Shown here one piece after another: positions 1 to 38,012 of a stretch of 64,000 nucleotides of DNA. Position 1 is the stretch's first letter, and each line of letters starts with the position of its first letter. Position numbers and translations under genes: made by a program. This DNA is from Giardia intestinalis. Taxonomy: Eukaryota. The notes under the pieces were generated by a model, which made no database searches, was not told where the DNA came from, and saw only the letters and a list, made by a program, of their open reading frames with translations. The stretch lies in NCBI GenBank assembly GCA_000002435.2, contig CM018792.1; one strand, given 5' to 3'.

Positions 1-3000
1 CCGCAAGATCGCCATGAGCAGGCACTTGTTCGACTTTCACGACCGCGCAGTCGCCAAGCACCGCGCAGAAAGGGCGCAGCAGGAGGCAGAGCGCCGAAGG
101 ACAGCGCTCCTCCAGTGCAAATCCGACGCGATAGCAGCTGGATACAACGAGTGGTACGACGCGCGGGTGTGCAAGGAGGAAGAGGAACACCTATCTAAGT
201 CAAAGCGCGACAGGTATGGCGGTAAACGGGCAGGCCTCTGGGAAGAGCATCTGATACTCAGCAACGCCTCTATTCGCGTTTCCTCAGTGGGCCCAGCAAG
301 GGCCCTTTCTGCTCCATATCAGCCAGCGTCTAATTGATGAAAAGTCTTCCTGCAAACCAAGTACTCTATTAAGTGGTTCGTTAGTGAATAGCACCTGTAC
401 CAAATAGAGAGTTGCATAACGAGCTCAGAGGTTTTCTTCCTCTGTTGAGCCCGTTGCATAGATGAAGTTGGTACGCCTCAATCAGATATCTGAAGTGCCT
501 CTTTATGAATGTACTCACAGATGCAACTAGAAGAGGTGCATCACACCTGACTCCATGTGTACAGACTTGACGCTATGCAAGATTACTTGACGGAAGTCTT
601 CAGGGACGCTAGTCATCGGTCTACACGCCAAGGATTAGGAGTCTACATAAGATGCTCTCGCTATACTCTTTTGTATGTTGAAAGGAGCTGATTTCCTAAA
701 ACACACTGATAAATATCAATAGCTTAAGCTTGAGGCCACAACTCCTCTTTGAACAACAGTCTATCGATGCTCAAGTATGGATTTCTAGAGTATTGATCAC
801 GATAACCAGGTCTTTGAGATTGTCTTAAATGTCCAACCTTTCTAAAGCGCAGTTTAAATGACTACTAGTTTCCATGGTTTGTAGGCCGTAGTATAGACTT
901 CGTTGAACTATTATACTTTTCCCATATCCCATAAACGTGCAGAAGGCTACTGTATTCTTGGAAGGGGTGATCTTTCATATATTTCTAAGCACTGAACCGT
1001 GGTTAGGATTGGTGTACAAGGTTATCAGACACACACGATGTCCATATTAAGACGCAGGACTTAAATGCTACAGGCGGCCTCAGAAAGAGCTCTCTGAGGG
1101 AACAAGAAGTGAGGCGACTAATGCACCGAAGATGCTGCGGGCCTCTGTCCACGGAGTGCAAACCCATTACTATGCAATTCGCTACCACAGGCTTCTGTCT
1201 GCGGCGACACAACTACTAGGTGACATCACACTCTGGAAGCTAGTGTGCGGGCTCACGTTGTAAGGTCGGCGGACCGGAGGATGCAGGAGCCACGGGGTAG
1301 TGACTGACCATCATGGCTTCTATAGGCTCTGCGGCTATTAGTACAGGGGCAGGGATGCTGCATCCTGGTGATTGGCCCAGAGCCGCACCATCCAATGGGC
1401 CGACGACCCTCATGTTGTTTCAATCTGAAGCGGCCTCCACTGCTGCCCCCGTACGAGTTGGAGAAGGGGTCGGCCCCATCGAATGCGGCAGAGAACAACA
1501 AGTCCCCAGTCTTCGGGCGAGGAAGATGGGTGATCTCGTCCAGGTGAAGCCGACTCCTCACCGTCCTCTGGGTCCTGCCTCTTCTACCGCCCTGGCACAA
1601 CATAGCTCGGTAGGGGGCGGCGTGTCTGCGCTACAGGACGCGTCGTCAAGAAAGAGTGGGCCTGGAGAGGCCCGACGGCCACCGCTGGGATAGGCCTCAG
1701 AAGCCCTTGGCTGCAGGATACGCTACTGCCAGGGTCAGTGCAGGCTATGGCTTTGAGGAAGCGCAGGACTGACGGGCGCTATCAGGAAACACCTGGCACG
1801 TTCTCGTGGAGAGGGGGACTCAGGCTTGGGGGCTTGGCAGTGTCGGGCCCGGGCTGGGTAGAGAGCTTGCTGTACCCGGAAGTGAAGACCCCAGCAAGCA
1901 GGAATAGTGGCCACAGCCAGTACAGCCGGCGGGTCGACCCGGGCCTCTTCAGCCGCGCTTGATGGAGCCCGACGTTGCGCCAGGCGACGGGACAGGGCAC
2001 CGGCCGTCTCTAGGGCATGCAGGAGGCGAGGCTTGTGAGCCCATGGGCGTCTGGCCTGCAAGCTGAGGCCACATCGGTGACGAGGCCCAGAGTGACGCAG
2101 CGTGGACGCTCTGTGGTGACGGGCCTGACAATGAGTGCAGCAAAGTTATGGGAATGGGCTCCGTCTGGGTCAGGACCTCAGAGTTCTCTTCGTCGTAAGG
2201 AAGAATAGGGCAGTGCGGTATAAGGGAGGCATCCGGCAAGATATGCTGGGAAACTGGCCCGTTGCGGTAAGTCACGGGCGCTGCCAAACACGGCGTCTCT
2301 TCTCTTAGACAGAAGACAGGCAGAATGGGTGACTGCGGAGGCTGCAGTGTCCGTGGTAGATCGCGGCATCGCAATGCGGCTGGGTCCGTGCCGGTGTGTC
2401 TGCCCGGACTCTAAGTGCGCTCTGAGGATCACCTGCTGATGGGCTGGAAGGCCCGAGAAGTGATGTGCTGCCCCTGTCATTGCGGGCAGCGCCCCGTGAC
2501 ACGCACTCGAGCCAGGGCCTCCTGGTGGCCAGAAGCAGAGCAGAGGCAGACGGCCGGTCGTGCATCCGTCCGGGCGGCTCACTGCATGTAGAGCGAAGAA
2601 GACCACTTGCGCCGCTCGGGTTATCGCTCAGCATCAAGTGCGGATGGAAGGCTGGGCCCGGCAACCAGGGCACCGACCTGTACGCTCCTGTCAGCCATCC
2701 CAGGCCGGCCAGAAGCCAGGCTCGACAGGCAGTGCAAAAGCCAGGGAAGCCAGCGTGATCATCGGGCCCGCGTTTGAATGCTAAAAAACTTGGGCGGCGA
2801 TGGCGACTGTCGTCTTCCTGGGAGGGCGCCTCTTCGCACAGGGTCAGCCGTCCTGGCCCTGCATGCTGGGTGCGCGGCTCGAGGGCGCGCTATGCTAGTT
2901 GAGGGCCTGCCAGGCGCTGCAGCCTACGAATAGCACGGACGGATGCAACGGGGTGTCCGAGCAGTGCACTGTCTTTGTCCCAGAGAGCTGTGGTTCTAAC

Positions 3001-6000
3001 CATGCGCCCTACACCAGCTCGGCATACCCCTGCTGCTTCCGCTGCTGGTCTGTCTGCCACTTGTTTATTATAGCGGGGGCGCATACGCTTGGGGTGTCGC
3101 CTAGGCACTGTAGTGGTCTTCTCTGACGGTGCGTGTATATTCACATGATGGCCGATGGGTGGAGCGGCTGCCTGATCTCCGAGCTCTCATTGCAACAAGG
3201 CGGGGCGTCGGCTGTCTACACGCCTCTAAGCGAGCCCGCGACCTCTGTGCAGATGCCTGCTCGCCGCGCTCCATAGTGACGGCTGTACACCCAGAAGGGG
3301 CTGCAGAATCCTCCGCTGTCCTTCGATGTGGACCACGGCTTGTGCACAGGCTAGCGACGGGGCCTGCACACTAGCTTCTATGGGCCCAGCCTGCCAGGCA
3401 CCTGGATCACAGTGCACGTCAAGACCGCACACTCGTTTGCATGCTCGCTGCTAATGTTGAACAGGACTGCGAGGGGTCTGTCTCTGGCCATCCTCGCCTT
3501 AGTACCTGGCCCTTGATGACACGCCTCAGTAGAGGATGGTGTCTTCTAAGTGCTCGGAAGACTATCCGTGCATGGCGGTTCCCGGAGAGTCGGTTCGCAC
3601 AGAAAGCGTAGATGTGCCCGGCGGGCTAGTGGGGTAAGGCTGGGGCTACAGAGACTAGCCATTAGTCCGGATTACAGCAGGGACACCTGTAGTGCCTCCT
3701 CGGCTCCTAAGCGTGGAAAGGCCGTAGAACTTGCAGATGAGTTGGAGGCTGCTTTTTGATTTTATGCATTTGCAGCAGAGCAGAGTTTACTGAAGGTCCA
3801 CTTATTCTAAATTCGAGGAGCCTCATCTCTTCCTCACACACGGTGAGATGATCGATTGTAGGGGTGTACTGTGCAAACCGGTGACAGTCAGCGTATCTAT
3901 TATCCAGACGGATACTGCCTGCGTCCTCCTGTGGCAGACCACCACCAGGGCCCCCAATCTACACATCTGTTCTGGCATCTGTCGGGCAATCATCACCTCC
4001 TGTCGAAGGATTGCTATACGTTACACATCTTGAGCCATCCATCGACCAGGTGGTGCCATAAGCTCTTGTCCCCTACTTGTCCACTCAATGCATACTCTGA
4101 GCGCCGCCAGTTGCACTCACGTCTGCACTACTCATCTGGATGCCCCCCACTCTTCAAGAGCACATGCCCGCAGCCGATGCTCCGTATTACAAGAGAAGTC
4201 AGCCGGATCACTGCGCTGTGCATAGCTCTCATAGGCGTGTTGCTATGCGCGCCCAGCCTTTCCACCCGTAGGCCGCCACGCGTTCACATGTGCGCCAGCG
4301 CCGCCGAGCTTTCGTGGTTTCGAGTGGCCCTGATGCATGGAGCGCTTGCGCACAAGTCCTTCCACCACTGACCCAGGCCGACCCCTCGCAAGATCCTTAG
4401 CGGAGTTGCATCCGAGATGTGTGTCTGCGTTGCTGTCCAGGTGCATGTGCCGGCCCTGGTGCTTCTCACAAGCTTGCGAGCATCGAGCTGGCCTCTACCG
4501 AACCGTATCAGAAGTCAGCACCAGGATGTGGTCCCCTCGGTTGGGCTCTGCAGGCTCCCAGAGCTACGCACCAAAGGGCCGTTCTTCTTTGCGCCGTGTA
4601 ACGTAGGGAGATGCACCGAGCTACTACGCCCTCTCCGTGTGGCGTGGTTTACGACGGGGGACGGGATCCCTGTGCTCATTGTCTATCTGCCCAGGGCCAG
4701 CCGCAGCCCGGGTTGAGGATGACAAGCGAAGATCTCCCAGCTCCTTGTCAGCGGGTGGGAGATCCCGCCACTCTAGTACCCACAACAAAGGGTGCCGATC
4801 ACTGGCAGAGGGACACGACACCCAGGCCCCGCTCCTTCCACTGATGGTACCTAATAAGAGACTCCTTTGTCGCCTGCACCAACAACCTCAGGCACCGTGG
4901 GTCAGAGTGCCTCCATAGTGGACAGCGGTAGCACTATGATGATCTGGGGTGATATGAGTCCTGGCTTACTGGCTCAGGAGGCAGCACGCTTTGGGTGGTT
5001 CTTCCCTCTTGTCCAGATCTGGGAGGGCTGGCTGCCTTCCGAGCCCCCTGGCACCTTGTCAGGTGATGGAGTGTCTTAAAGTATTCATTACAAAAGATCA
5101 GAAATAGCGCCATGCATTCCCAATAGATCAGAGGGTCTCACGAGCTACTCTATGCTGATTCACACCTTTCATGGACCCTAGCGACCACTGTAACCTTCTT
5201 TCGGGATCTTGCAAGGGACTGTCCTTGAGTGCGATTCCCCATGACAGCCGGGAGTCGCAGACATAATCCAAAGGGATGAGAGTACTACAGAGGCTGAGAG
5301 GAGAGTGCCGATGCACAGGGGTCCGCAGAGACCCGACTCGTACAGGGAAGGCGTGGAGGCTGGCTCTCCAGGGATGTAGAGCCACCAGGAAAGGAGCCGG
5401 CAGTGGGGCTGAGGGTCAGCAGAGGCACCCGAGCCGTCCTCTGATTGACCGCGAGGCAGCAGGCACATGGGGCGGCATCACCGCTTGTTTTTGGATTTTC
5501 TGCTTCCCTGCGCGTTGTGCAGGGGTCCGTAGTGGGTTGAGTATCACAGGCTACGCACAGCAACGCGTTTACTACCTAAGTACATCTACGCCTTCCCTCT
5601 GCAGATGAACCACCAGCAGAGGAAGCCCACAAGGCCTCCGACGACGACAATGACTGCGACAGAGATCCCCGCGATGGCACCGGTAGAAAGGCCGCTCTTG
5701 TTCGTGCTTCCGTCGGTACTGTCACCATCTTTTATGAGGTAGCAGAGGACGGAGCCACTACCAGCCGATGGAGGGGCGCAGCTAGCGCAGTTGGCGACGC
5801 CGGTGATGGATCCCCCGTCGCTCTTGTCGCATGCTATGCACTTTTCTTTGGACAGGTAGTACCCTGCAGCGCACACCGTGCACTTGGTGGCATCGTTCGC
5901 ATTGCACTCGGAGCACCCAGTGGCGCAGGGAACACACTTCTGAGTGTTACCGCCAGTCTTAGCATATCCAGCCTTGCACGTGTCGCACTGGTCCTGGCTG

Positions 6001-8424
6001 GTGCACGTCTTACATCCGGCCGAGCAAGTGGTGAGCGCGCCGTTATCCAGCTTGTACCCGTCGGCCGGAGTCTGACAAGCATCGCTCGCTTCTGCTGCGG
6101 CTAAGCAGACGCTCTTTCCGGGGAACTTGGTCGTCTCATAGCAGCCCCCGTTCATACGAAGAAGCCCGTTGGCGCATTTATTGCAAACACCACTTCCTTG
6201 AGTAGTGCACGTAATGGCCTTTCCGGCCGCCGCCGAGCAGACTCCGTTCTGCGGAAACTGGCCGGCGTCCTTGCACTTGGAGCAGTAGGCCGTGCCATTG
6301 ACCGTCAGCTCGCACTTCTCGCAGTTGTTAGCATTTGGCTCGCATCCTGGTTTGCACGTCCCCGTGTTGCCCTCTCCTTCGTAGCTGAGGGCCTTCTTAG
6401 GCTCGCAGCTCGTACACCCGTTGGAGTTCCCGTTCGCGCACGTCTTACACGAGGTATCGCACTTGGCACAGGCGGCTCCGCTCTTGTAATATCCGTCCTT
6501 GCAGGTATCACACTGTCCGTTCTCGTTGCACAGGAGGCAGTTCTCGACCTCGCACTTCTTGCAGGCCTTCTTGCCCCCCTCGTTGGTGCCCGCGTAGTAG
6601 CCTCCCAGATCTCCGCAGTTATCGATGCACTGGCCCGTGGGCGTGAGGGCCTTAGTGCCCTCGCACTCTGTGCACACCTCCTTGCTTGTCTTCGGCTCAC
6701 TGCATGTCTTGCAGCCGGGGGTGTTGCACTGGGGGTCGGATTTCTTCGTGCACCCGGTGCCCGCGTTGTCGGGAACGTAGCCCTCGACGCACTCACAAAC
6801 GCCAGAGGTCTTTTCCTCGTTGGAGTTCAAGGGGCAGCTTTCAACGCACCCCTTCTTGTTTGGCTGGATCTTCTTATTAGGCCCGCACGTCTTGCAAACC
6901 ACTCCGGTGGGGCCTTTCTCACAAGTGGCGCAGTCCACCGTCCCTCCGGAAGCGCAGGTGTTGCACTCCTTTGCTTCCTTATCAACGTAATGAGTTGCCG
7001 GGCAGCCGTTTGCGTCAACGCACGTGCCAGTTGTGGACTCGTCATCCTTCTTTAGGTACGGCTTGTCATCCTTGCAGGAGGTGCACTTCGCAGCCCCAGT
7101 CTTACAGGTCTTGCATGTCTCAGCGCACTTGCTGCATTTTTTACCGCCCGTTGTATCGACGAAGAACCCTTCAGTGCCGGTGCACTCCTGTTCCGTCACA
7201 CACGACGTCGCGCCCCCGTCCGTCTTAACAATCCTCGCGGTTTGCTGCGCATCAGGGCCGCACGCAGTACACTTAGCAACTCCATTAGCTTGGCTCGTCA
7301 GTGCAGACCCGTCACAGGTAGTGCACCCGGCCACGCCCGTGTATGTCTTATCGCCAAGCGTTATGCCCGTCGCGTCTCCGCACGGTATAACCGACTGGTG
7401 AGAGACATCTGCGCCCGGTGGCACGAAGTATCCTTGCGCGGCTTGTGTGCATTTTCCCTCAGAGGCTTGCGTGCACATGGTCTGTCCGGGCTGCTGGGCT
7501 GCTTCGTAACACCCGCCCTTGTACATGAAAGTCTGACCAGCGCACTGTCCACAGGTCTGATCGGCTGTATTGCCTCCGGAGCTATCTTTACACTTATCTG
7601 TTGCACCATCTTTGCCTACACATTTTCCATTGATAGGAACAGATCCTGCGTCACATTGAGAACAGTACAGCTTATCGCCAATCAGAACGTTACATGCGTC
7701 TGCTGCACAATTAGTGTTATCTGCGCATTGAACTTCCCGCACGTGCTCTGCTACTTTTTCTGCCCATGCAATCTGGATGGCTAGGCCCGCGAATATAAAA
7801 CTACCGAACATTAACCAATCTGATAAATTGATAGGAAAAGAATCGCGGTACGTTCAGCCAATCCGTGTGACTGACACACCGCGGAGTATGGTAGCCTGCT
7901 TGGCGATCAGTAATAAAACGGGATCCACTAGTCTTCTTGAATGTTGCTTCACCCCTCACAATCTAGACACAATGATGATCACCCGACCACTTGTGTGGCC
8001 CATTGTCTTGCAGCGCGGAGCCCTACAGTGGCCATCTTCTGAACGACGCCACCCTGCCATTCGCGGAGGGCCCCTCATCCTCCCTCGTTATAGACCGTGG
8101 CAAAAGAGACACAGCAGGCGGCTTGTCCATCTCCGTAAACATCCGAGAGGGCCCTGCCTGTCTGTGTGAGGAGGTTTACTCTTTCCACCGAGGGCGGTTT
8201 TCGACTACTTCCGGCGCATCAGTCGCGTCCGGGCGGTGGCGTGCCGCTGGGGCCTGCCTGCGGCGTGGTCCAGAAGTCTCACGGGTAAGCCTCGCTCAAT
8301 TCCCGGCCAGCCCGGAGGCGAAGGGTGGTCGTGGGTCGCAGTGATAGCCACAGCGGTGGCAAAGAGGGGTCCCCTCCACGTGTGGATCTGGGGTCTCGCG
8401 TTCCTCGGCTGTTCTGCGGGCATG
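1..8424. repeat. Left arm of a giant inverted repeat (palindrome), truncated at the window start. Mirror of ~11045..19468, with coordinates summing to 19469.
   Basis: Every six-frame ORF in 14..8420 has an exact or near-exact reverse-strand twin (e.g. 14..337+ vs 19132..19455-, 5586..7811- vs 11658..13883+, 8236..8420+ vs 11049..11233-). Nucleotide comparison at the inner edge shows identity decaying over 8415-8424 (catgtgcaca | caatcgg). Confidence 0.93.
5586..7811 (-). CDS. vsp: Variant-specific surface protein (VSP), 741 aa, left-arm copy
   Basis: Signal peptide MFGSFIFAGLAIQIAWA. Dozens of CXXC motifs and two GGCY motifs. C-terminal TM helix (GAIAGISVAVIVVVGGLVGFLCWWFI) followed by the invariant VSP tail CRGKA*. 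Giardia polyadenylation signal AGTAAAC lies 13 nt past the stop (5567..5573, minus strand). Confidence 0.95.
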   Translation of the reverse strand: MFGSFIFAGLAIQIAWAEKVAEHVREVQCADNTNCAADACNVLIGDKLYCSQCDAGSVPINGKCVGKDGATDKCKDSSGGNTADQTCGQCAGQTFMYKGGCYEAAQQPGQTMCTQASEGKCTQAAQGYFVPPGADVSHQSVIPCGDATGITLGDKTYTGVAGCTTCDGSALTSQANGVAKCTACGPDAQQTARIVKTDGGATSCVTEQECTGTEGFFVDTTGGKKCSKCAETCKTCKTGAAKCTSCKDDKPYLKKDDESTTGTCVDANGCPATHYVDKEAKECNTCASGGTVDCATCEKGPTGVVCKTCGPNKKIQPNKKGCVESCPLNSNEEKTSGVCECVEGYVPDNAGTGCTKKSDPQCNTPGCKTCSEPKTSKEVCTECEGTKALTPTGQCIDNCGDLGGYYAGTNEGGKKACKKCEVENCLLCNENGQCDTCKDGYYKSGAACAKCDTSCKTCANGNSNGCTSCEPKKALSYEGEGNTGTCKPGCEPNANNCEKCELTVNGTAYCSKCKDAGQFPQNGVCSAAAGKAITCTTQGSGVCNKCANGLLRMNGGCYETTKFPGKSVCLAAAEASDACQTPADGYKLDNGALTTCSAGCKTCTSQDQCDTCKAGYAKTGGNTQKCVPCATGCSECNANDATKCTVCAAGYYLSKEKCIACDKSDGGSITGVANCASCAPPSAGSGSVLCYLIKDGDSTDGSTNKSGLSTGAIAGISVAVIVVVGGLVGFLCWWFICRGKA

Positions 8425-9183
8425 TGCACACAATCGGACCTGAGGCGAAGGAGAGCCCGCGAGGACCCGATCCGCATTACGAACGCAAGATCGTACCTCC
8501 GGACCCCAAACAGCAAGCCGTGAGTCTCTACTTGGGAGACCACTCCGAAGACGCTTGCCCTCTGGCAGGACACACATGCTGGCTCTGTGGCCTACCGTGT
8601 GAGAGCGCCAACAACTAACCGAGCACCTGAGAGAAGCAAACGATGACAGACACAGAGTACCGGGCGACGACAAGCTGATCCTTCCGGCCCAGTACCGAAC
8701 CAGACAGAGCTCGCCATGCTCATCCACCAAGGTGCACCCATGATCGCGAGCATCGAGCAGGCAGGGACTGGGGTCGCTCTTCCCGCTATCAGGGGCCTAG
8801 ACGCCCTGGTGGGAAGCCCCAGAGGACTCAAGCAACACAGTAGAGCAGGCCCAGAGCAAGTCGGACCCAGATCCAGAGAGGGCGAGGCGCCGGATAGCAA
8901 ACAGGGTGAACAACGCGCTGAGCTTCGGGGCAGTTGCTAAGGCTCTCCGCGCCCTTGATGACACGCCCATGGTAGACATCAAGTCGGAGAAGGCCAAGGC
9001 TGCCCTCAGCGCGCTACACCCGTGCGTCCTCCCCGAAGGCTACGTTGGCCTTGACTACCCTCTATCGATGAACTCGACGGGGCTGGAGTGGCAACCGAGG
9101 AGGAAATGAGAAAGGCCCTGTTGGGACTCTCAACAAGAAGGCCTCGGGCGGTCCAGCTCAGGTGATGAAGCAGAACGACGACT

Positions 9184-9900
9184 GTGAAATGCCTCACGCA
9201 GGCGTACAACGAGCTGACCACCCACCCCGAAGGAGTCCGACGGATACCCCCGATCGCGATAGGCGAGACGGTCACGAACACCTTCCACCGCGTCCTGCTG
9301 AAGCGGCTGGTCAGGCATGCCAACTACCTCTCATGCGAACAGATCGCCTTCAAGCAGAACGCATACGCGGTAGGTGTGAGGAGGGCCCACGAGCTCATCA
9401 GCAGGCGGGGGTGCACCCCGTCTCCCTCGACATAAAGAACGCCCTCAACTCCCTCCCGAGGGCAGAGGTCGTCAGAGCCCTGAACGAGGCGGGCGTCCCG
9501 AAGGTCCTAGTCGACTACATTAGGAACTTCCTCGACCTGAGGCACAGCCGGGACGTGAAGTGCGAGGTCTGGGGCGTCCCCCAGGGCGACCCGCTCAGCA
9601 CTTTCCTCTTCTGCATGGCCATCGAGCGCCTCCTGAGACGCCTCAAGGAGAGGGGCATCACCTTCCTTGCCTAGCGGACGACATCGTGGCGCTCCACGAC
9701 GAGGCCTACCCGGCAGGCACGATAATACAGCAGGCCACGGTGGAGGCCGCCGCCATGGACCTGACGATCAGGAGCGACAAGTGCAAGTCCACCATGGCGG
9801 GCGAGGAGGTGACTTTCCTCAACCACCCGGTGTCCCCCACCCCTGCAAGCCTTGCCCCAAAGGCCATCGCAGGTGCTGAGACTGCCCCCATAACCATCCA
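9184..9900 (+). pseudogene. Reverse transcriptase domain of the dead retroelement, with frameshifts including a 1-bp deletion inside the YADD box
   Basis: gcc tag cgg acg aca at 9668..9682 would read FLA-YADD-IVAL if one C were restored (tac gcg gac gac). The RT motifs are spread over frames 1, 0 and 2. Confidence 0.8.
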
Positions 9901-10310
9901 CTAGAAGCTCATCTTGATGTCACTCTGTGTGGTCCCGATGGTGAACTACGCCCCCCTGGTCGAGATAACATCGGACAAGGCGGACTACGAGGAGCTCGAC
10001 AGACGTCGCACAAGGCTTCAGCAAAATAACCAACAGAAGCTGCGATCGCCTGGTCGACTTCCTGGCGTACCCGAAGGAGAAGGGCGGTCTGGGCCTGCTC
10101 ATGCCGGGGCTCTGCCACGACGAGCTGCGGAGGGCATGGGCCTCCCCGGACGTCAACAAGGGGACCAGGGACCCGGTGGAGCTGTCGGTGGGCGGCCAGG
10201 CACTGCAGGGGAAGGGGACCTACTTCAACCGCCTCCTCACGCGCACACATCAGCTTCCGGACAGAGCGGCGGCGTGCTGACCGAGGAGGAAAGGGCCCTG
10301 AAGGAGAGAG

Positions 10311-10802
10311 ATGGCTCGATCATGGCGCAGACAAGAGGCACCTGCCCAGGCTGCCACACGGCGAGGACCCTCGACCACGAGGCACGACATGATCGTCGCG
10401 TGCCTGTACCTCCGCGTCTCGGGGAAGTTCAACGCAGAGCTGGAGGTCAAGACCCACAGCCACCTCAGCGACCAGAACCAGAAGCCCGACATCTGGCTCG
10501 TCGACAAGTGCAAGGCAGTGGACGTGCGTGTCATCCAGCCCCGCCAGATGGATGCCTACTACAACGAGAAGGTCAAGAAGTACAGGGACGGGACGCTCCC
10601 GATCATCTACGGGACAGACGGCTCCCTCCACCCCAGTCCAAGGGGCACCTCGAGGAGCTCCACGTGGACCTCTATCCGGGCTGCCTTCGCCATCGCCCAC
10701 ATGGCTGCAAAGGCGAACGAGCACCCGACGAAGCTGATCAGACGCGACCGGGCCGAAAGCCTGGCCACCCAGAGCGACCGCCTCCTGTCATCCTACTTCT
10801 GA
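10311..10802 (+). pseudogene. REL-endonuclease-like C-terminal domain fragment of the dead retroelement. It is preceded by CCHC zinc-finger remnants in another frame.
   Basis: KPDIWLVD...VDVRV...EKVKKY resembles the PD-(D/E)XK motif of R2/NeSL/GilM-type elements. A Cys/His cluster lies upstream in frame 2 (9914..). Confidence 0.6.
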
Positions 10803-11657
10803 CAACCGAATGAGCCCATCCCTGGGACCTGTCGACAACGATCGAGGGGGGGGCAAAGACTGGACACACAACCGAGTTGAATCCCAACCAGTGGAGAGAG
10901 CCCCGCTAGCTGCTGCTGATCTACATGGACAGTATCGAAAATGACAACAAAGACCAGAGCTTCACCCACCATGAAGGGAGAACAAGGAGAGGCACCCTCA
11001 GTAGAACAGTGAGTCCGTAAGAAAACCTCGAAAAGATCGATGTGCACGCCCGCGGAACAGCCGAGGAACGCGAGACCCCAGATCCACACGTGGAGGGGAC
11101 CCCTCTTTGCCACCGCTGTGGCTATCACTGCGACCCACGACCACCCTTCGCCTCCGGGCTGGCCGGGAATTGAGCGAGGCTTACCCGTGAGACTTCTGGA
11201 CCACGCCGCAGGCAGGCCCCAGCGGCACGCCACCGCCCGGACGCGACTGATGCGCCGGAAGTAGTCGAAAACCGCCCTCGGTGGAAAGAGTAAACCTCCT
11301 CACACAGACAGGCAGGGCCCTCTCGGATGTTTACGGAGATGGACAAGCCGCCTGCTGTGTCTCTTTTGCCACGGTCTATAACGAGGGAGGATGAGGGGCC
11401 CTCCGCGAATGGCAGGGTGGCGTCGTTCAGAAGATGGCCACTGTAGGGCTCCGCGCTGCAAGACAATGGGCCACACAAGTGGTCGGGTGATCATCATTGT
11501 GTCTAGATTGTGAGGGGTGAAGCAACATTCAAGAAGACTAGTGGATCCCGTTTTATTACTGATCGCCAAGCAGGCTACCATACTCCGCGGTGTGTCAGTC
11601 ACACGGATTGGCTGAACGTACCGCGATTCTTTTCCTATCAATTTATCAGATTGGTTA

Positions 11658-13883
11658 ATGTTCGGTAGTTTTATATTCGCGGGCCTAGCCATCCAGATTG
11701 CATGGGCAGAAAAAGTAGCAGAGCACGTGCGGGAAGTTCAATGCGCAGATAACACTAATTGTGCAGCAGACGCATGTAACGTTCTGATTGGCGATAAGCT
11801 GTACTGTTCTCAATGTGACGCAGGATCTGTTCCTATCAATGGAAAATGTGTAGGCAAAGATGGTGCAACAGATAAGTGTAAAGATAGCTCCGGAGGCAAT
11901 ACAGCCGATCAGACCTGTGGACAGTGCGCTGGTCAGACTTTCATGTACAAGGGCGGGTGTTACGAAGCAGCCCAGCAGCCCGGACAGACCATGTGCACGC
12001 AAGCCTCTGAGGGAAAATGCACACAAGCCGCGCAAGGATACTTCGTGCCACCGGGCGCAGATGTCTCTCACCAGTCGGTTATACCGTGCGGAGACGCGAC
12101 GGGCATAACGCTTGGCGATAAGACATACACGGGCGTGGCCGGGTGCACTACCTGTGACGGGTCTGCACTGACGAGCCAAGCTAATGGAGTTGCTAAGTGT
12201 ACTGCGTGCGGCCCTGATGCGCAGCAAACCGCGAGGATTGTTAAGACGGACGGGGGCGCGACGTCGTGTGTGACGGAACAGGAGTGCACCGGCACTGAAG
12301 GGTTCTTCGTCGATACAACGGGCGGTAAAAAATGCAGCAAGTGCGCTGAGACATGCAAGACCTGTAAGACTGGGGCTGCGAAGTGCACCTCCTGCAAGGA
12401 TGACAAGCCGTACCTAAAGAAGGATGACGAGTCCACAACTGGCACGTGCGTTGACGCAAACGGCTGCCCGGCAACTCATTACGTTGATAAGGAAGCAAAG
12501 GAGTGCAACACCTGCGCTTCCGGAGGGACGGTGGACTGCGCCACTTGTGAGAAAGGCCCCACCGGAGTGGTTTGCAAGACGTGCGGGCCTAATAAGAAGA
12601 TCCAGCCAAACAAGAAGGGGTGCGTTGAAAGCTGCCCCTTGAACTCCAACGAGGAAAAGACCTCTGGCGTTTGTGAGTGCGTCGAGGGCTACGTTCCCGA
12701 CAACGCGGGCACCGGGTGCACGAAGAAATCCGACCCCCAGTGCAACACCCCCGGCTGCAAGACATGCAGTGAGCCGAAGACAAGCAAGGAGGTGTGCACA
12801 GAGTGCGAGGGCACTAAGGCCCTCACGCCCACGGGCCAGTGCATCGATAACTGCGGAGATCTGGGAGGCTACTACGCGGGCACCAACGAGGGGGGCAAGA
12901 AGGCCTGCAAGAAGTGCGAGGTCGAGAACTGCCTCCTGTGCAACGAGAACGGACAGTGTGATACCTGCAAGGACGGATATTACAAGAGCGGAGCCGCCTG
13001 TGCCAAGTGCGATACCTCGTGTAAGACGTGCGCGAACGGGAACTCCAACGGGTGTACGAGCTGCGAGCCTAAGAAGGCCCTCAGCTACGAAGGAGAGGGC
13101 AACACGGGGACGTGCAAACCAGGATGCGAGCCAAATGCTAACAACTGCGAGAAGTGCGAGCTGACGGTCAATGGCACGGCCTACTGCTCCAAGTGCAAGG
13201 ACGCCGGCCAGTTTCCGCAGAACGGAGTCTGCTCGGCGGCGGCCGGAAAGGCCATTACGTGCACTACTCAAGGAAGTGGTGTTTGCAATAAATGCGCCAA
13301 CGGGCTTCTTCGTATGAACGGGGGCTGCTATGAGACGACCAAGTTCCCCGGAAAGAGCGTCTGCTTAGCCGCAGCAGAAGCGAGCGATGCTTGTCAGACT
13401 CCGGCCGACGGGTACAAGCTGGATAACGGCGCGCTCACCACTTGCTCGGCCGGATGTAAGACGTGCACCAGCCAGGACCAGTGCGACACGTGCAAGGCTG
13501 GATATGCTAAGACTGGCGGTAACACTCAGAAGTGTGTTCCCTGCGCCACTGGGTGCTCCGAGTGCAATGCGAACGATGCCACCAAGTGCACGGTGTGCGC
13601 TGCAGGGTACTACCTGTCCAAAGAAAAGTGCATAGCATGCGACAAGAGCGACGGGGGATCCATCACCGGCGTCGCCAACTGCGCTAGCTGCGCCCCTCCA
13701 TCGGCTGGTAGTGGCTCCGTCCTCTGCTACCTCATAAAAGATGGTGACAGTACCGACGGAAGCACGAACAAGAGCGGCCTTTCTACCGGTGCCATCGCGG
13801 GGATCTCTGTCGCAGTCATTGTCGTCGTCGGAGGCCTTGTGGGCTTCCTCTGCTGGTGGTTCATCTGCAGAGGGAAGGCGTAG
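11658..13883 (+). CDS. vsp: Variant-specific surface protein (VSP), 741 aa, right-arm copy. Protein-identical to 5586..7811 and head-to-head with it.
   Basis: Same 741-aa translation as the left copy. AT-rich initiator context caatttatcagattggttaATG. AGTAAAC polyadenylation signal at 13896..13902. Confidence 0.95.
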   Translation: MFGSFIFAGLAIQIAWAEKVAEHVREVQCADNTNCAADACNVLIGDKLYCSQCDAGSVPINGKCVGKDGATDKCKDSSGGNTADQTCGQCAGQTFMYKGGCYEAAQQPGQTMCTQASEGKCTQAAQGYFVPPGADVSHQSVIPCGDATGITLGDKTYTGVAGCTTCDGSALTSQANGVAKCTACGPDAQQTARIVKTDGGATSCVTEQECTGTEGFFVDTTGGKKCSKCAETCKTCKTGAAKCTSCKDDKPYLKKDDESTTGTCVDANGCPATHYVDKEAKECNTCASGGTVDCATCEKGPTGVVCKTCGPNKKIQPNKKGCVESCPLNSNEEKTSGVCECVEGYVPDNAGTGCTKKSDPQCNTPGCKTCSEPKTSKEVCTECEGTKALTPTGQCIDNCGDLGGYYAGTNEGGKKACKKCEVENCLLCNENGQCDTCKDGYYKSGAACAKCDTSCKTCANGNSNGCTSCEPKKALSYEGEGNTGTCKPGCEPNANNCEKCELTVNGTAYCSKCKDAGQFPQNGVCSAAAGKAITCTTQGSGVCNKCANGLLRMNGGCYETTKFPGKSVCLAAAEASDACQTPADGYKLDNGALTTCSAGCKTCTSQDQCDTCKAGYAKTGGNTQKCVPCATGCSECNANDATKCTVCAAGYYLSKEKCIACDKSDGGSITGVANCASCAPPSAGSGSVLCYLIKDGDSTDGSTNKSGLSTGAIAGISVAVIVVVGGLVGFLCWWFICRGKA

Positions 13884-13895
13884 ATGTACTTAGGT

Positions 13896-13902
13896 AGTAA
13901 AC
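13896..13902 (+). terminator. Giardia polyadenylation signal AGTAAAC (AGTRAAY consensus) for the right VSP copy. The mirror on the minus strand is at 5567..5573.
   Basis: Exact AGTAAAC 13 nt downstream of the TAG stop. The same motif class follows RPL13A (around 25691) and overlaps the EF-2 stop (38002..38008). Confidence 0.7.
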
Positions 13903-16900
13903 GCGTTGCTGTGCGTAGCCTGTGATACTCAACCCACTACGGACCCCTGCACAACGCGCAGGGAAGCAGAAAATCCAAAAACAAGCGGTGATGCCGCCCC
14001 ATGTGCCTGCTGCCTCGCGGTCAATCAGAGGACGGCTCGGGTGCCTCTGCTGACCCTCAGCCCCACTGCCGGCTCCTTTCCTGGTGGCTCTACATCCCTG
14101 GAGAGCCAGCCTCCACGCCTTCCCTGTACGAGTCGGGTCTCTGCGGACCCCCGTGCATCGGCGCTCTCCTCTCAGCCTCTGTAGTACTCTCATCCCTTTG
14201 GATTATGTCTGCGACTCCCGGCTGTCATGGGGAATCGCACTCAAGGACAGTCCCTTGCAAGATCCCGAAAGAAGGTTACAGTGGTCGCTAGGGTCCATGA
14301 AAGGTGTGAATCAGCATAGAGTAGCTCGTGAGACCCTCTGATCTATTGGGAATGCATGGCGCTATTTCTGATCTTTTGTAATGAATACTTTAAGACACTC
14401 CATCACCTGACAAGGTGCCAGGGGGCTCGGAAGGCAGCCAGCCCTCCCAGATCTGGACAAGAGGGAAGAACCACCCAAAGCGTGCTGCCTCCTGAGCCAG
14501 TAAGCCAGGACTCATATCACCCCAGATCATCATAGTGCTACCGCTGTCCACTATGGAGGCACTCTGACCCACGGTGCCTGAGGTTGTTGGTGCAGGCGAC
14601 AAAGGAGTCTCTTATTAGGTACCATCAGTGGAAGGAGCGGGGCCTGGGTGTCGTGTCCCTCTGCCAGTGATCGGCACCCTTTGTTGTGGGTACTAGAGTG
14701 GCGGGATCTCCCACCCGCTGACAAGGAGCTGGGAGATCTTCGCTTGTCATCCTCAACCCGGGCTGCGGCTGGCCCTGGGCAGATAGACAATGAGCACAGG
14801 GATCCCGTCCCCCGTCGTAAACCACGCCACACGGAGAGGGCGTAGTAGCTCGGTGCATCTCCCTACGTTACACGGCGCAAAGAAGAACGGCCCTTTGGTG
14901 CGTAGCTCTGGGAGCCTGCAGAGCCCAACCGAGGGGACCACATCCTGGTGCTGACTTCTGATACGGTTCGGTAGAGGCCAGCTCGATGCTCGCAAGCTTG
15001 TGAGAAGCACCAGGGCCGGCACATGCACCTGGACAGCAACGCAGACACACATCTCGGATGCAACTCCGCTAAGGATCTTGCGAGGGGTCGGCCTGGGTCA
15101 GTGGTGGAAGGACTTGTGCGCAAGCGCTCCATGCATCAGGGCCACTCGAAACCACGAAAGCTCGGCGGCGCTGGCGCACATGTGAACGCGTGGCGGCCTA
15201 CGGGTGGAAAGGCTGGGCGCGCATAGCAACACGCCTATGAGAGCTATGCACAGCGCAGTGATCCGGCTGACTTCTCTTGTAATACGGAGCATCGGCTGCG
15301 GGCATGTGCTCTTGAAGAGTGGGGGGCATCCAGATGAGTAGTGCAGACGTGAGTGCAACTGGCGGCGCTCAGAGTATGCATTGAGTGGACAAGTAGGGGA
15401 CAAGAGCTTATGGCACCACCTGGTCGATGGATGGCTCAAGATGTGTAACGTATAGCAATCCTTCGACAGGAGGTGATGATTGCCCGACAGATGCCAGAAC
15501 AGATGTGTAGATTGGGGGCCCTGGTGGTGGTCTGCCACAGGAGGACGCAGGCAGTATCCGTCTGGATAATAGATACGCTGACTGTCACCGGTTTGCACAG
15601 TACACCCCTACAATCGATCATCTCACCGTGTGTGAGGAAGAGATGAGGCTCCTCGAATTTAGAATAAGTGGACCTTCAGTAAACTCTGCTCTGCTGCAAA
15701 TGCATAAAATCAAAAAGCAGCCTCCAACTCATCTGCAAGTTCTACGGCCTTTCCACGCTTAGGAGCCGAGGAGGCACTACAGGTGTCCCTGCTGTAATCC
15801 GGACTAATGGCTAGTCTCTGTAGCCCCAGCCTTACCCCACTAGCCCGCCGGGCACATCTACGCTTTCTGTGCGAACCGACTCTCCGGGAACCGCCATGCA
15901 CGGATAGTCTTCCGAGCACTTAGAAGACACCATCCTCTACTGAGGCGTGTCATCAAGGGCCAGGTACTAAGGCGAGGATGGCCAGAGACAGACCCCTCGC
16001 AGTCCTGTTCAACATTAGCAGCGAGCATGCAAACGAGTGTGCGGTCTTGACGTGCACTGTGATCCAGGTGCCTGGCAGGCTGGGCCCATAGAAGCTAGTG
16101 TGCAGGCCCCGTCGCTAGCCTGTACACAAGCCGTGGTCCACATCGAAGGACAGCGGAGGATTCTGCAGCCCCTTCTGGGTGTACAGCCGTCACTATGGAG
16201 CGCGGCGAGCAGGCATCTGCACAGAGGTCGCGGGCTCGCTTAGAGGCGTGTAGACAGCCGACGCCCCGCCTTGTTGCAATGAGAGCTCGGAGATCAGGCA
16301 GCCGCTCCACCCATCGGCCATCATGTGAATATACACGCACCGTCAGAGAAGACCACTACAGTGCCTAGGCGACACCCCAAGCGTATGCGCCCCCGCTATA
16401 ATAAACAAGTGGCAGACAGACCAGCAGCGGAAGCAGCAGGGGTATGCCGAGCTGGTGTAGGGCGCATGGTTAGAACCACAGCTCTCTGGGACAAAGACAG
16501 TGCACTGCTCGGACACCCCGTTGCATCCGTCCGTGCTATTCGTAGGCTGCAGCGCCTGGCAGGCCCTCAACTAGCATAGCGCGCCCTCGAGCCGCGCACC
16601 CAGCATGCAGGGCCAGGACGGCTGACCCTATGCGAAGAGGCGCCCTCCCAGGAAGACGACAGTCGCCATCGCCGCCCAAGTTTTTTAGCATTCAAACGCG
16701 GGCCCGATGATCACGCTGGCTTCCCTGGCTTTTGCACTGCCTGTCGAGCCTGGCTTCTGGCCGGCCTGGGATGGCTGACAGGAGCGTACAGGTCGGTGCC
16801 CTGGTTGCCGGGCCCAGCCTTCCATCCGCACTTGATGCTGAGCGATAACCCGAGCGGCGCAAGTGGTCTTCTTCGCTCTACATGCAGTGAGCCGCCCGGA

Positions 16901-19131: not shown

Positions 19132-19650
19132 TCAATTAGACGCTGGCTGATATGGAGCAGAAAGGGCCCTTGCTGGGCCCACTGAGGAAACGCGAATAGA
19201 GGCGTTGCTGAGTATCAGATGCTCTTCCCAGAGGCCTGCCCGTTTACCGCCATACCTGTCGCGCTTTGACTTAGATAGGTGTTCCTCTTCCTCCTTGCAC
19301 ACCCGCGCGTCGTACCACTCGTTGTATCCAGCTGCTATCGCGTCGGATTTGCACTGGAGGAGCGCTGTCCTTCGGCGCTCTGCCTCCTGCTGCGCCCTTT
19401 CTGCGCGGTGCTTGGCGACTGCGCGGTCGTGAAAGTCGAACAAGTGCCTGCTCATGGCGATCTTGCGGGCCGCTCTGTACACCTCGCCGGCCTTTTCCGA
19501 ACGCCGCCAGAGGGCCTGGCTTCGGCGGTCCGCCGCTTCCTCGACAGAGCGCGTCCTCCGGAGGGGCTGCGCTAGCCGCGCGACAACGTGGCCGGGCAGC
19601 GGCCTCCTGAAGGGCTGGCCAGACGGGACCGTGAAGTAGCTGAACGCCAT
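19132..19650 (-). CDS. Hypothetical protein (172 aa). The C-terminal 108 codons lie inside the inverted repeat and are duplicated at 14..337 (+).
   Basis: ATG-initiated ORF with a charged coiled-coil-like stretch (AERAQQEAERRR). It is GC-rich like the repeat arms. No recognisable domain. Confidence 0.35.
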   Translation of the reverse strand: MAFSYFTVPSGQPFRRPLPGHVVARLAQPLRRTRSVEEAADRRSQALWRRSEKAGEVYRAARKIAMSRHLFDFHDRAVAKHRAERAQQEAERRRTALLQCKSDAIAAGYNEWYDARVCKEEEEHLSKSKRDRYGGKRAGLWEEHLILSNASIRVSSVGPARALSAPYQPASN

Positions 19651-19854
19651 CCTTTTCTTTCCACCCGGGTCAGCAGGTCAGCAGGCTCGCACCCGTCGCA
19701 GGCCTCCCGGCGCGCCCGGAGTAAGCTTTGGGGATGCCCACATTTCAGAAGTATTCAAATCCTAACTACATTACATAGTCATAATCTCAATACGAAGAAA
19801 CAGTCGGCCTACTAAGTTACCAATGGACGTACCAAGCAAGTTAATGGGAGCTAT

Positions 19855-20595: not shown

Positions 20596-20772
20596 TTTTA
20601 TTGGGCCTTTTTCGTGTAAATTACTTCCAGCTTCATTCTTTAACACGATACTGCATCTGCGCCTTCGTCTCCCCCTCCTCTCACAATAGTGCCCCTTCCT
20701 GCATAATGCTAACTGCTTTGCAAGAGCCTGTAGTGTCACATATATCTTAGAGGTATATGCTTAAAATATAAC

Positions 20773-24156: not shown

Positions 24157-24168
24157 ATTATTCAGCGG

Positions 24169-24969: not shown

Positions 24970-25073
24970 TATCTTCTGTAAATGTTACCTCAGGTTTGAG
25001 ATAGAATATTCTAATAAAATACTAAGAACTTTAAATTGGATTTAGCGCAAATCTGTTTGCTCACGGACGAGCC

Positions 25074-25667: not shown

Positions 25668-25721
25668 GCATGCTAAGCATTTACAAGCAGTAAACAGCCC
25701 CAGGTGTGTCTTCTTTGCACG

Positions 25722-26303: not shown

Positions 26304-26732
26304 CTACAGCTTTCTACGCTTTATTAAAAAGGCAGGTAATGCGAACGTCTCTCGGCGGCACGCCGAAATTTCGTTGTAGATCACGACGACTCTGTTAATA
26401 CACTAATGGTCTGCACAAGGTATTGCCCATGCTGCTTTTTGAGTGATGCAAACTAGCACTTAAAAGCGCTTAAGTGCACTGGCTAAAAAGGTTCAATTGA
26501 TCGGGTTATCGAGCTGTGACAGATCCAGGATTAACTTTGAATGAGATCCATAAAGGCACTACTTTAATATATGTCAGATTGATGAGATGCAGCGTACCAG
26601 ACCAGAAGAGTGTAAGGCTTTCGATAGGCCAAACAACAGATTGAAGCCCATTTAAACTCACTATGCGGGCACATGACAAGGGAGCTTTCAAATATTGCAG
26701 CTAAACCCTACCCTTTAGGGACAGACGTTAAC

Positions 26733-29444: not shown

Positions 29445-29462
29445 ATGGTAGTTAACTTGTCT

Positions 29463-38002: not shown

Positions 38003-38012
38003 GTAAATATAA

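Follow-up and report, generated by a model that had tools for sequence, protein, structure and literature searches.

A long gene-free tract beside the vsp162 pair of Giardia lamblia is non-coding DNA and probably a fast-evolving VSP-associated spacer

Inverted identical pairs of vsp genes have been described in Giardia, and one of them, vsp162.1/162.2, consists of two identical 741-aa ORFs arranged head to head with an inter-ORF distance of 3846-3847 bp and a psi-RT listed between them (Adam et al. 2010, BMC Genomics 11:424; Xu et al. 2020, Sci Data 7:38, PMC7000408 Table 2; PMC2996952 supplement). Regions flanking VSPs are gene-poor and carry more allelic variation (Xu et al. 2020, PMC7000408), structural variants are enriched at VSPs (Pollo et al. 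2020, PMC7048089), and non-coding DNA is generally unalignable between WB and GS (PMC2723961).

We analyzed a window of 64,000 nucleotides from Giardia intestinalis (assembly GCA_000002435.2, contig CM018792.1), which contains this very pair on chromosome 4 of G. lamblia WB (GL50803_111936/111933). Window positions 1-8424 and 11045-19468 form palindrome arms that are 100% complementary. Identity with the true left arm, which is cut by the window start, runs on to 19727 and gives arms of about 8.68 kb; sequences L001-L005 align over 19727..18352 and beyond that carry the other flank. The features of the locus are as follows.

1..337, plus strand: left-arm copy, 3' part only, of a conserved 172-aa hypothetical gene (ORF list; full right-arm copy at 19132..19650, minus strand)
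338..1117, no strand: AT-rich part of the spacer, 42.1% GC, ~0.8 kb, with the composition of ordinary Giardia intergenic DNA
383..389, plus strand: poly(A) signal AGTGAAT of the 172-aa gene (AGTRAAY scan)
1118..5565, no strand: GC-rich non-coding block, 59.6% GC, ~4.4 kb, all ORFs of chance length
1253..1603, minus strand: annotated 'Hypothetical protein GL50803_119130', 116 aa, exact match to XP_001704671.1, two EukProt entries, singleton cluster
3363..4437, no strand: sole part of the block with relatives elsewhere, in four gut-metagenome contigs (L016-L019; 78-79% identity, 16-17 gaps)
3835..4437, no strand: better-conserved core of that segment, 88-96% identity
5567..5581, minus strand: extended VSP poly(A) signal ACTTAGGTAGTAAAC (minus-strand reading), end of the VSP transcript (sequence and scan)
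5586..7811, minus strand: vsp162 copy GL50803_111933, 741 aa, C-terminal end CRGKA (PMC2996952 supplement, PMC7000408 Table 2, chr4 coordinates)
7812..8424, no strand: VSP 5' flank within the arm, of which about 8240-8420 also lies upstream of other VSPs
8425..11044, plus strand: unique palindrome spacer, one dead GilD/Genie-2-like non-LTR element with frameshifted RT and REL-endonuclease remnants (homology extent 8398..11011)
11045..19468, no strand: right arm, perfect inverted copy of 1..8424
13884..19129, no strand: mirror copy of the gene-free stretch, from arm complementarity

The gene-free stretch (338..5585, ~5.2 kb) is a convergent intergenic region between the conserved 172-aa gene and vsp162, bounded by the poly(A) signals at 383 (plus strand) and 5567 (minus strand). 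The Giardia poly(A) signal is defined as AGTRAAY. The exact 172-aa protein sequence occurs on 67 blocks of the sequence collection, and its orthologues are 79% identical in assemblage B (GL50581_2906 / QR46_4951) and 74% identical in a further lineage. On the VSP side, DH and GS carry 5565-5727 again at the 3' ends of other VSPs. As had been claimed from the letters of the window alone, the spacer is abnormally long for Giardia, at ~11 times the largest and ~74 times the median of the 22 intergenic gaps in 19650..64000 (median 70 nt, maximum 487 nt, pooled GC 43%). The predicted passage from an AT-rich part to one of ~60% GC is real, GC running at 0.40-0.45 over about 250..1250 and at 0.52-0.65 over 1250..5585, but the step lies nearer 1118 than 1250; likewise the mirror copy exists but ends at 19129 instead of 19130. 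The GC-rich block lies above the coding DNA of the same window in GC (49.8%), with VSP at 57.5% and psi-RT at 61.5%. Its trinucleotide signature is nearest ordinary Giardia DNA (r 0.71-0.81) and farthest from VSP (0.44). AT-richer islands lie inside the block at about 3730-3830 and 5050-5130.

The stretch is genuine non-coding DNA. The longest stop-free run in 1251..5585 is 194 codons, compared with 180 ± 36 (maximum 283) when these bases are shuffled 200 times, and stop codons are spread evenly across the six frames (37-49 each). The short, overlapping, motif-free ORFs on both strands that were noted originally are as numerous as in shuffles and arise because of the 60% GC composition. The block has a period-3 power of 2.1, where the null gives 1.8 (95th percentile, 2.9), the psi-RT 6.6-11.8 and real genes 12-35; its codon-usage potential is near shuffle level. 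No Pfam match at E<=1 was obtained in six frames of the stretch, while the same screen detects the decayed RT in the palindrome center (RVT_1, E=7e-09), and an exhaustive HMMER search recovered only frame-shifted readings of the same DNA. Searches for tRNAs, tandem repeats, telomere repeats and internal repeats of the block found none, and the block has no similarity to the rest of the 64-kb window beyond its mirror copy. We judged GL50803_119130, which has no Pfam match, periodicity or homologues, to be a spurious ORF. The original prediction that no credible gene is present thus holds, and a search for a frameshift-free gene model backed by homology came up empty.

The same searches bear on the origins that had been considered. 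Ribosomal DNA, already excluded from the letters alone, is rejected on the lack of Rfam matches (at gathering thresholds over 1..20000 and at E<=1 over 300..5650). The suggested VSP relic is abandoned, as there is no Pfam VSP match, neither tblastx nor blastn links the stretch to the adjacent VSP or to the conserved VSP 3' end, and compositional similarity is lowest to VSP. Another class of retroelement, if it kept a recognizable ORF, is rejected as well, since the six-frame screen that finds the RT at the center yields nothing in the stretch. A recently decayed gene is disfavored by the missing period-3 signal, the shuffle-level codon usage and the frame-breaking indels in the sole conserved piece.

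GilD and Genie 2 are reportedly dead non-LTR retrotransposons of Giardia. The palindrome center is such an element, with its RT and REL-endonuclease remnants, its many degenerate paralogues (33 'RT/endonuclease' fragments) and its inverted-repeat flanks, and it is 86.6% identical over 2.7 kb to a DH locus (L012). The GC-rich block differs: it bears no trace of RT or EN, and two other copies, compared together with their flanks, show no nucleotide similarity to it. On these comparisons, the block is not part of the central element.

In assemblage B the layout is as in WB: gene, AT-rich tract, GC-rich tract and convergent VSP 3' end. The AT-rich tract after the orthologue measures 0.6 kb (42% GC) in assemblage B and at least 3.5 kb (37-38% GC) in lineage L013, and the AT-rich tracts have no sequence similarity across lineages. 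The whole assemblage B spacer is 1.7 kb long versus ~5.2 kb in WB, and blastn finds no match between the two, whereas the genes on either side keep 77-80% identity. Past about +1250, three B isolates differ among themselves. Judged from these alignments, the arrangement is conserved between assemblages A and B but the spacer sequence is not. The presence of a GC-rich tract beside a VSP in both, even though normal intergenic DNA is AT-rich, hints at a process or a constraint. The assemblage B orthologue is present in both flank contexts, the breakpoint lying 78 nt before the ATG there and 77 nt before it in WB, and this shared outer breakpoint argues for an old duplication with homogenization rather than a recent one. 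It points to a palindrome that is old and kept identical by conversion. Short-read contigs of both assemblages fragment on nearing or entering the GC-rich part: those of WB type all end at 1117, one at 1198, and none of those retrieved spans the block, while Logan contigs support its first 81 nt and both outer palindrome junctions.

Building on the non-coding status, the position, the palindrome, the conserved architecture and breakpoint and the missing sequence conservation, we regard the stretch as probably a fast-evolving, structurally plastic VSP-associated spacer without sequence-specific function. Structural DNA at VSP loci, one of the options first put forward, is the one that fits best and agrees with the gene-poor surroundings of VSPs (PMC7000408); the stretch is mostly an ordinary case of the gene-poor DNA already reported near VSP genes. 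The GC-rich filler would turn over rapidly by substitution and by large insertions and deletions, so that assemblages A and B share the arrangement alone, and gene conversion would homogenize the palindrome arms, which would be why the two spacer copies are identical within the genome. The high GC may reflect recombination or GC-biased conversion at the VSP locus, or else GC-rich debris too old to be recognized; a single gene supplies the GC3 support for biased conversion, and GC3 is as high in a few genes outside the arms. Any role of the spacer would then be that of bulk spacer. Against filler stands the finding of 3363..4437 at 78-96% identity in metagenome contigs, which would be unexpected should these come from a distant lineage. 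The GC-rich tract beside the VSP in both assemblages counts against it as well.

This segment bears on three other explanations. Identity between WB and two metagenome lineages steps from 61-79% to 88-96% at about 3835, and the core beyond the step carries indels of 5, 2, 2, 1, 1, 1, 1 and 21 nt that break every reading frame; hence any constraint would not be on a protein, and the amino-acid identities of overlapping ORFs (68%, 57% and 39%) indeed fall below nucleotide identity. A marginal bump in period-3 and coding potential is seen at 3300-4800. All of this could suit a functional non-coding element, the core being an lncRNA gene or a cis-acting chromatin or regulatory element tied to VSP control and the remainder spacer, and the fast-evolving AT-richer island at 3735..3834 could even act as a Giardia-type promoter. 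We consider this unlikely: the core shows no RNA-structure signal (z-scores +0.5 and -0.6, compensatory pairs 0/160) and no Rfam match, no counterpart of 3363..4437 was found in the orthologous assemblage B spacer, and 88-96% may be the neutral similarity of close relatives, only three distinct sequences being compared. The ends of the segment could suggest something else. Homology of L017 to WB starts abruptly at 3363 after unrelated DNA and, across the contigs, stops only at contig ends, three independent metagenome assemblies ending on the one base equivalent to WB 4437, just as WB-type contigs stop at 1117. Giardia non-LTR elements have multi-kb 3' UTRs, and one dead retroelement already occupies the palindrome center. 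Non-coding debris of mobile or dispersed repeats, making up the block in whole or in part, would account for the similarity across lineages as well as for the fragmented assemblies; it might be 5'-truncated long 3' UTRs (GilM/GilT/Genie 1) or some other repeat family. This too seems improbable for a block that lacks a poly(A) tail, a target-site duplication and RT/EN traces, without internal repeats, with the composition of ordinary Giardia DNA and unlike both the other DNA in the window and two DH GilD-like loci taken with 10-kb flanks. Even more doubtful are ancient protein-coding genes (VSP, HCMP or another family) decayed past recognition. The GC content is nearer that of VSP and psi-RT than of intergenic DNA, the AT-richer islands could be former intergenic gaps, and ORFs of 167-230 aa in three lineages share one stop codon position; yet the old psi-RT is still detectable by Pfam where the block is not, periodicity and any match to VSP or its strongly conserved 3' end are missing, and a frameshift separates even L017 from L018/19, which are 99.4% identical.

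The two remaining explanations concern the palindrome. Read-through from arm to spacer to arm could make a long perfect dsRNA for Dicer processing and RNAi-type silencing of vsp162, the non-coding block merely lengthening the duplex, and such an endo-siRNA locus, at chr4:2,636,590-2,656,580, would be compatible with the spacer reading. A 2.6-kb loop between perfectly inverted arms at least 8.4 kb long would suit it; Dicer, Argonaute, endo-siRNAs and pervasive antisense transcription have been described in Giardia, and VSP expression has been linked to RNAi (PMC3792122). We nevertheless hold it to be very unlikely, given that in each arm the two genes carry poly(A) signals of their own, directed into the block, and that GL50803_119130 is missing from the small-RNA table of PMC11080815. 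An assembly artefact, in which a long-read fold-back or mis-join made the inverted duplication or the block, might be suspected from arms that are exactly identical and from the lack of a contig across the block, but it is scarcely credible: the pair is present in the 2007 Sanger assembly with a 3847-bp inter-ORF distance and again in the PacBio assembly, the older assembly holds two annotations of GL50803_119130, an ORF within the block, Logan contigs bear out the junctions, assemblage B has the same duplicated gene and breakpoint, and the loop is unique DNA rather than a zero-length fold-back.

A VSP-associated spacer in a homogenized palindrome compares with three described systems. The locus is itself one of the inverted vsp pairs (Adam et al. 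2010; Xu et al. 2020), for which flank divergence is published at 139-729 bp from the ORF, with no 3' divergence point stated for vsp162. Here identity extends ~5.84 kb beyond the stop codon, taking in the gene-free stretch and a second gene, promoter included, and giving arms of about 8.7 kb where the published points would imply roughly 3 kb; the authors proposed recent duplication, whereas the breakpoint in common with assemblage B would favor an old one. The long gene-free tract adjoining a VSP, the short-read breakage in both assemblages and the variation in length and sequence among isolates match the gene-poor and variant VSP regions (Xu et al. 2020; Pollo et al. 2020), which were reported as a genome-wide pattern with no single tract dissected. 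New here are the division of one tract into AT-rich and GC-rich parts, a two-part layout also found in assemblage B, and the tests for coding, VSP, RT and rRNA origins, none of which was found. The ampliconic palindromes of the human and ape Y chromosome, which gene conversion between their arms maintains, are far larger than that of Giardia, a tetraploid asexual or rarely sexual protist whose palindrome arms are mostly non-coding with an antigen gene and for which conversion and GC bias are what we infer; they share with it a unique loop, gene-carrying arms, near-identity of the arms within a lineage and about 20% divergence between lineages with the same boundary.

The stretch at 338..5585 is the interval between two convergent genes, the conserved hypothetical 172-aa gene and a VSP. 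Three annotated or predicted features lie at its edges or within it:

337, + strand: end of the 172-aa gene, with a poly(A) signal AGTGAAT at 383
5567-5581, read on the - strand: poly(A) signal of the VSP, ACTTAGGTAGTAAAC, found from the sequence and a motif scan
1253..1603 (-) and its mirror copy: GL50803_119130 (XP_001704671.1, ATCC 50803), an exact protein match

The original prediction of an AT-rich tract followed by a GC-rich one was borne out, with GC of 0.40-0.45 over ~250..1250 and 0.52-0.65 over 1250..5585, and the boundaries were refined to 338..1117 (42.1% GC) and 1118..5565 (59.6% GC). The latter, which we call the block, exceeds coding DNA in GC (49.8%). The view that Giardia spacers are short also held: across 22 intergenic gaps of the window's right half the median length is 70 nt, the longest gap has 487 nt and the pooled GC is 43%; the 5,248-nt gap is ∼11 times the largest of them. 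A mirror copy had likewise been claimed, and positions 1-8424 and 11045-19468 are indeed complementary at 100%.

The window is DNA of Giardia lamblia WB. Its VSP at 5586..7811(-) is a 741-aa ORF with the C terminus CRGKA and, past the stop codon, the extended VSP poly(A) signal; an identical inverted ORF occupies 11658..13883(+), both inside the 100% identical arms. The locus matches a published head-to-head identical pair on chromosome 4, vsp162.1/162.2 (GL50803_111936/111933), catalogued as HHIPa/b (PMC2996952 supplement), and window position 1 corresponds to approximately chr4:2,636,850 in GiardiaDB coordinates, which puts 1118..5565 at about 2,637,967-2,642,414. The distance from start codon to start codon is 3846 nt, inside the 2-4 kb non-coding gap of identical pairs. 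For the same pair, Adam et al. 2010 gave 741 aa, 3847 bp between the ORFs and no 3' divergence point, and Xu et al. 2020 (PMC7000408) gave 3846 bp with a reverse-transcriptase remnant between the genes. We found the loop, 8425..11044, to be one discrete dead GilD/Genie-2-like non-LTR element, with RVT_1 at ∼9393-9826 (frameshifted), a REL-endonuclease-like region ('KPDIWLVD') and 33 degenerate 'RT/endonuclease' paralogues. Positions 8398-11011 align over 2.7 kb, at 86.6% identity, with a copy that lies at an unrelated locus of the isolate DH, and the left 27 nt of the element lie inside the arm.

In the other published inverted identical vsp pairs the flanks diverge 139-729 bp from the ORF (Adam et al. 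2010), and vsp162 is therefore an outlier in arm length. Its 5' flank identity of 613 nt falls within this range; its 3' flank identity extends 5844 nt beyond the stop codon, to 19727, well outside it. The 5' limit lies 613 nt from the start codon in this window and 561 nt from it in Adam et al. 2010, which is probably a difference between assembly versions.

Among the WB-type contigs retrieved from Logan, five (L001-L005) matched 19727..18352 and then carried another flank with zf-CHY and kinase/ankyrin genes, and five (L006-L010) extended into the right flank present in the window. Identity between the two flanks sets in exactly 77 nt upstream of the ATG of the 172-aa gene (19727), so that the arms measure ∼8.68 kb, the left one being truncated solely by the start of the window. 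Each arm comprises this gene and its promoter, all of the gene-free stretch, the VSP and the 613 nt of VSP 5' flank. Both sets of contigs cross the outer arm boundary unbroken, which a single de Bruijn graph with both junctions should forbid. Directly outside the right arm lies a 246-aa peroxiredoxin at 19855..20595(-), with an FTFVCP motif and a signal-like sequence at its N terminus. Inside its 3' end several short-read contigs begin, possibly owing to a near-identical paralogue elsewhere.

Orthologues of the 172-aa gene were found at 79% and 74% identity, the 79% cluster being assemblage B (GL50581_2906, QR46_4951). Assemblage B encodes an identical protein in both flank contexts, one with zf-CHY (L020) and the other with an NHL gene and peroxiredoxin (L021-L023). 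The identity of these contexts begins exactly 78 nt upstream of the ATG, a position homologous to the WB breakpoint, and six B contigs begin exactly there. Since this outer breakpoint is common to A and B, the inverted duplication would predate the A/B split. Identity between copies is 100% in WB and 98.6-99.5% among B contigs, with ∼80% between A and B. The shared boundary argues for a palindrome that is old and homogenised and not a recent duplication, and the identity within lineages indicates concerted evolution, most simply explained by arm-to-arm gene conversion. Recent duplication has been suggested for identical VSP pairs (Adam et al. 2010), but the shared breakpoint points the other way. 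In a third lineage, that of contig L013, both contigs have their start 103 nt before the ATG, a hint that a palindrome boundary may lie there as well.

The spacer of assemblage B is shorter than that of WB (1.7 kb versus 5.25 kb) but alike in layout: ∼0.6 kb at 42% GC downstream of the gene is followed by ∼1.1 kb at 62% GC and then by a convergent VSP 3' end, of which L021 7087-7197 matches window 5566-5681. No alignable sequence was found between the WB block and the assemblage B spacers, though the flanking genes are 77-80% identical. This is the norm for WB and GS, because their non-coding DNA is in general too different to align whereas coding sequence is 77 ± 5% identical (PMC2723961); Giardia intergenic DNA is also described as AT-rich (PMC2723961). 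Three B isolates diverge from each other beyond ∼+1250 nt, and two B arms differ by a 2-nt indel at +967, where gapped alignment shows no divergence. The third lineage (L013, Logan ERR3333381, with the 74% orthologue) has, after the gene, a gene-free tract of at least 3.5 kb (L013 605..4179) at 37-38% GC, an AT-rich tract much longer than that in A or B.

The block had been described as producing short overlapping ORFs and no gene, and this description stands. The longest stop-free run is 194 codons, compared with 180 ± 36 (maximum 283) in shuffles, and each of the six frames of the GC-rich part has 37-49 stops; the many short overlapping ORFs arise because 60% GC yields them, as they do in shuffles of the same bases. 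When 1000..5590 was translated in six frames with stops X-masked, Pfam gave no match at E<=1, and the same procedure applied to the palindrome centre as a positive control recovered RVT_1 at E=7e-09, distributed between two frames. Period-3 power in the block was 2.1 (shuffle mean 1.8, 95th percentile 2.9), and the controls gave 6.6-11.8 for the dead RT element, 12-21 for ordinary genes and 35 for the VSP. Codon-usage log-odds of the block, trained on window genes or VSP, were close to shuffled-block values in a test in which the dead RT element was also weak, and the VSP-trained score was negative. By Pfam, period-3 and codon usage, each with its control, the block is neither coding nor recently coding.

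For a protein-coding gene, intact or recently decayed, no support was found: the ORFs are at chance level, periodicity is absent and the frames of relatives are broken by 1-, 2- and 5-nt indels. As to recent decay, the earlier option of a decayed gene is disfavoured by the ORF, period-3 and codon-usage tests and by the homologue frames. Nor did a frameshift-free gene model with homology emerge, the block's sole relatives being the same DNA in shifting frames. Concatenating 29 stop-free stretches gave no match in an index of 5.8 billion proteins, a query that saturated its candidate list, also missed a known exact member and so carries no weight either way. Exact look-up of 20 block ORF variants found only GL50803_119130 recorded, the GTG and TTG variants being perhaps unfair tests, and a collection of 15 billion proteins contained none of the WB-type block ORFs except this NCBI-annotated one. 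It forms a singleton cluster, without domain or periodicity, and this annotated 'Hypothetical protein' almost certainly owes its ORF to chance in non-coding, GC-rich DNA. Two proteins (P0040, 2533 aa, and P0042, 889 aa) match block-ORF residues ∼59-139 in 9-12 repeats at low identity, and these matches are probably compositional or repeat artefacts.

We also rejected a VSP gene or pseudogene, as the block has neither a PF03302 domain nor similarity to the adjacent VSP or to its 3' end, a region conserved among VSPs of DH and GS. Neither blastn nor tblastx found a match for the block elsewhere in the window, the VSP with its 3' end included, and with Pfam also negative the suggestion of a VSP relic fails. 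The trinucleotide signature of the block is nearest to ordinary Giardia DNA (r 0.71-0.81) and farthest from VSP coding sequence (0.44), so that, together with the absence of a VSP match, the block is native DNA and not a recognisable VSP relic. A coding remnant of a non-LTR element (GilM/GilT/GilD, Genie) was rejected in turn, the control having found RVT_1 in the centre and nothing comparable in the block. In the form of an element with a recognisable ORF, the retroelement option accordingly lost its ground, as six-frame Pfam at E<=1 left no RT or REL-endonuclease remnant in the block.

That the stretch is not rDNA was confirmed: no Rfam family reached its gathering threshold in 1..20000 or E<=1 in 300..5650, and ribosomal DNA was rejected specifically with SSU, LSU, 5.8S and 5S covariance models (300..5650, E<=1). 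No tRNAs, tandem repeats or telomere repeats were found in the stretch. A scan for bacterial-type promoters and terminators was set aside as irrelevant to Giardia.

The block does have relatives over part of its length. Exhaustive HMMER searches with the stretch at 3862..4368 (169 codons) returned three gut-metagenome ORFs at 68%, 57% and 39% identity, which proved to be the same DNA in shifting frames. At the DNA level, four gut-metagenome contigs (L016-L019) of two lineages ∼9% apart align to 3348/3363..4437 with 78-79% identity and 16-17 gaps, their identity to WB being 61-79% over 3435-3834 and 88-96% over a core at 3835-4437. Indels of 5, 2, 2, 1, 1, 1, 1 and 21 nt break every frame, and L017 and L018/19, although 99.4% identical, have a frameshift between them. 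Substitution phase relative to WB is skewed for L017 (6/12/22) and flat for L016 (12/18/15). Homology to WB begins abruptly at ∼3363, no match was found for the 1.3 kb upstream in L017, and three independent assemblies stop at one base, which corresponds to WB 4437. The assemblage B spacer lacks this segment, and an invariant 39-mer of the core gave no match in a scan of JGI metagenomes. These contigs could stem from a hypervariable region in a diverged, A-like lineage; they could also be copies of a dispersed element.

Conservation of the core raises the question of a functional non-coding element in 3835..4437, which we consider unlikely. Folding of the core, the only part folded, gave z-scores of +0.51 and -0.58 against shuffles, and none of 160 predicted pairs was compensatory (covariation term +0.71), in a low-power comparison of three sequences. 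Debris of a dispersed repeat or of retroelement UTRs, which the second reading of the metagenome contigs would favour, seems to us unlikely to the same degree; self-comparison revealed no internal repeats in the block, and it has no similarity to the loop element, to the left-flank contig or, at the nucleotide level, to two GilD-like loci of DH together with their 10-kb flanks. An origin from very old decayed genes is less probable still. Period-3 power within the block is marginally raised at 3300-4800 alone (3.6-4.7).

Two further explanations concern the palindrome as a whole. Its arms, at least 8424 nt long and 100% complementary around a 2620-nt loop, form an inverted repeat capable of producing dsRNA, and a role as a source of hairpin RNA, though compatible with the other readings, is in our judgement very improbable; GL50803_119130 is absent from one small-RNA table (PMC11080815). 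The chance that perfectly complementary arms are an assembly artefact is negligible, as two independent WB assemblies, the short-read junctions and assemblage B all contradict it.

All but one of the WB-type contigs with the 172-aa gene stop at 1117 (mirror 18352), the AT-to-GC step, the exception stopping at 1198, and no local hairpin or repeat was found at 1117. B contigs stop between +691 and +1248 nt, counted from the stop codon. Contig look-ups by VSP, GL50803_119130 and peroxiredoxin found nothing. Breakage at 1117 fits published reports that regions around VSPs have more allelic variation (PMC7000408) and that VSPs are enriched in structural variants within isolates (PMC7048089).

The reading that we favour, and hold to be somewhat probable, is that the stretch is a fast-evolving, plastic non-coding spacer without sequence-specific function, situated in the arms of an old palindrome homogenised by conversion. 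The spacer between the convergent genes would be carried in these arms and kept identical by gene conversion, and its high GC next to the VSP could plausibly come from GC-biased conversion or from recombination at the VSP locus. High GC close to the VSP is found in both A and B and is not usual for intergenic DNA of Giardia; within the arms the AT-rich tract has nonetheless remained AT-rich. GC3 of the in-arm 172-aa gene is 0.72 in WB, where its right-arm copy spans 19132..19650, and 0.66 in B; its immediate neighbours have 0.38-0.54 and a few distant genes reach 0.75-0.78; as a sign of biased gene conversion this is suggestive but not specific. Giardia is a tetraploid protist in which recombination is still debated.

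A bolder version, which we regard as doubtful, is that the vsp162 palindrome is older than the A/B split and that ongoing arm-to-arm conversion maintains the identity of its arms, with the GC-rich hypervariable tract as the footprint of a recombination or conversion hot spot driving turnover of the VSP locus, and possibly as a source of hairpin dsRNA. If so, this 'empty' DNA would be more than inert filler: the machinery that diversifies and silences surface-antigen genes would leave it as a by-product or use it as a substrate.

The pair, the dead RT element and the gene-poor surroundings of VSPs are already published (PMC7000408, PMC2996952), and the stretch is therefore a well-resolved example of a known phenomenon. 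Taken alone it matters little, beyond exposing GL50803_119130. What appear to be undescribed are the ∼8.7-kb arms, with identity reaching 5.8 kb past the VSP stop codon, the outer breakpoint common to assemblage B, and a spacer layout, AT-rich and then GC-rich, that is conserved without conservation of sequence. The block could serve, within the arms, as a neutral non-coding reporter of how fast conversion proceeds, how long its tracts are and how GC-biased it is. At least this identical pair would be old and homogenised, which bears on the evolution of the VSP repertoire, and its arms are ∼3 times the length implied by the published divergence points of VSP inverted pairs.
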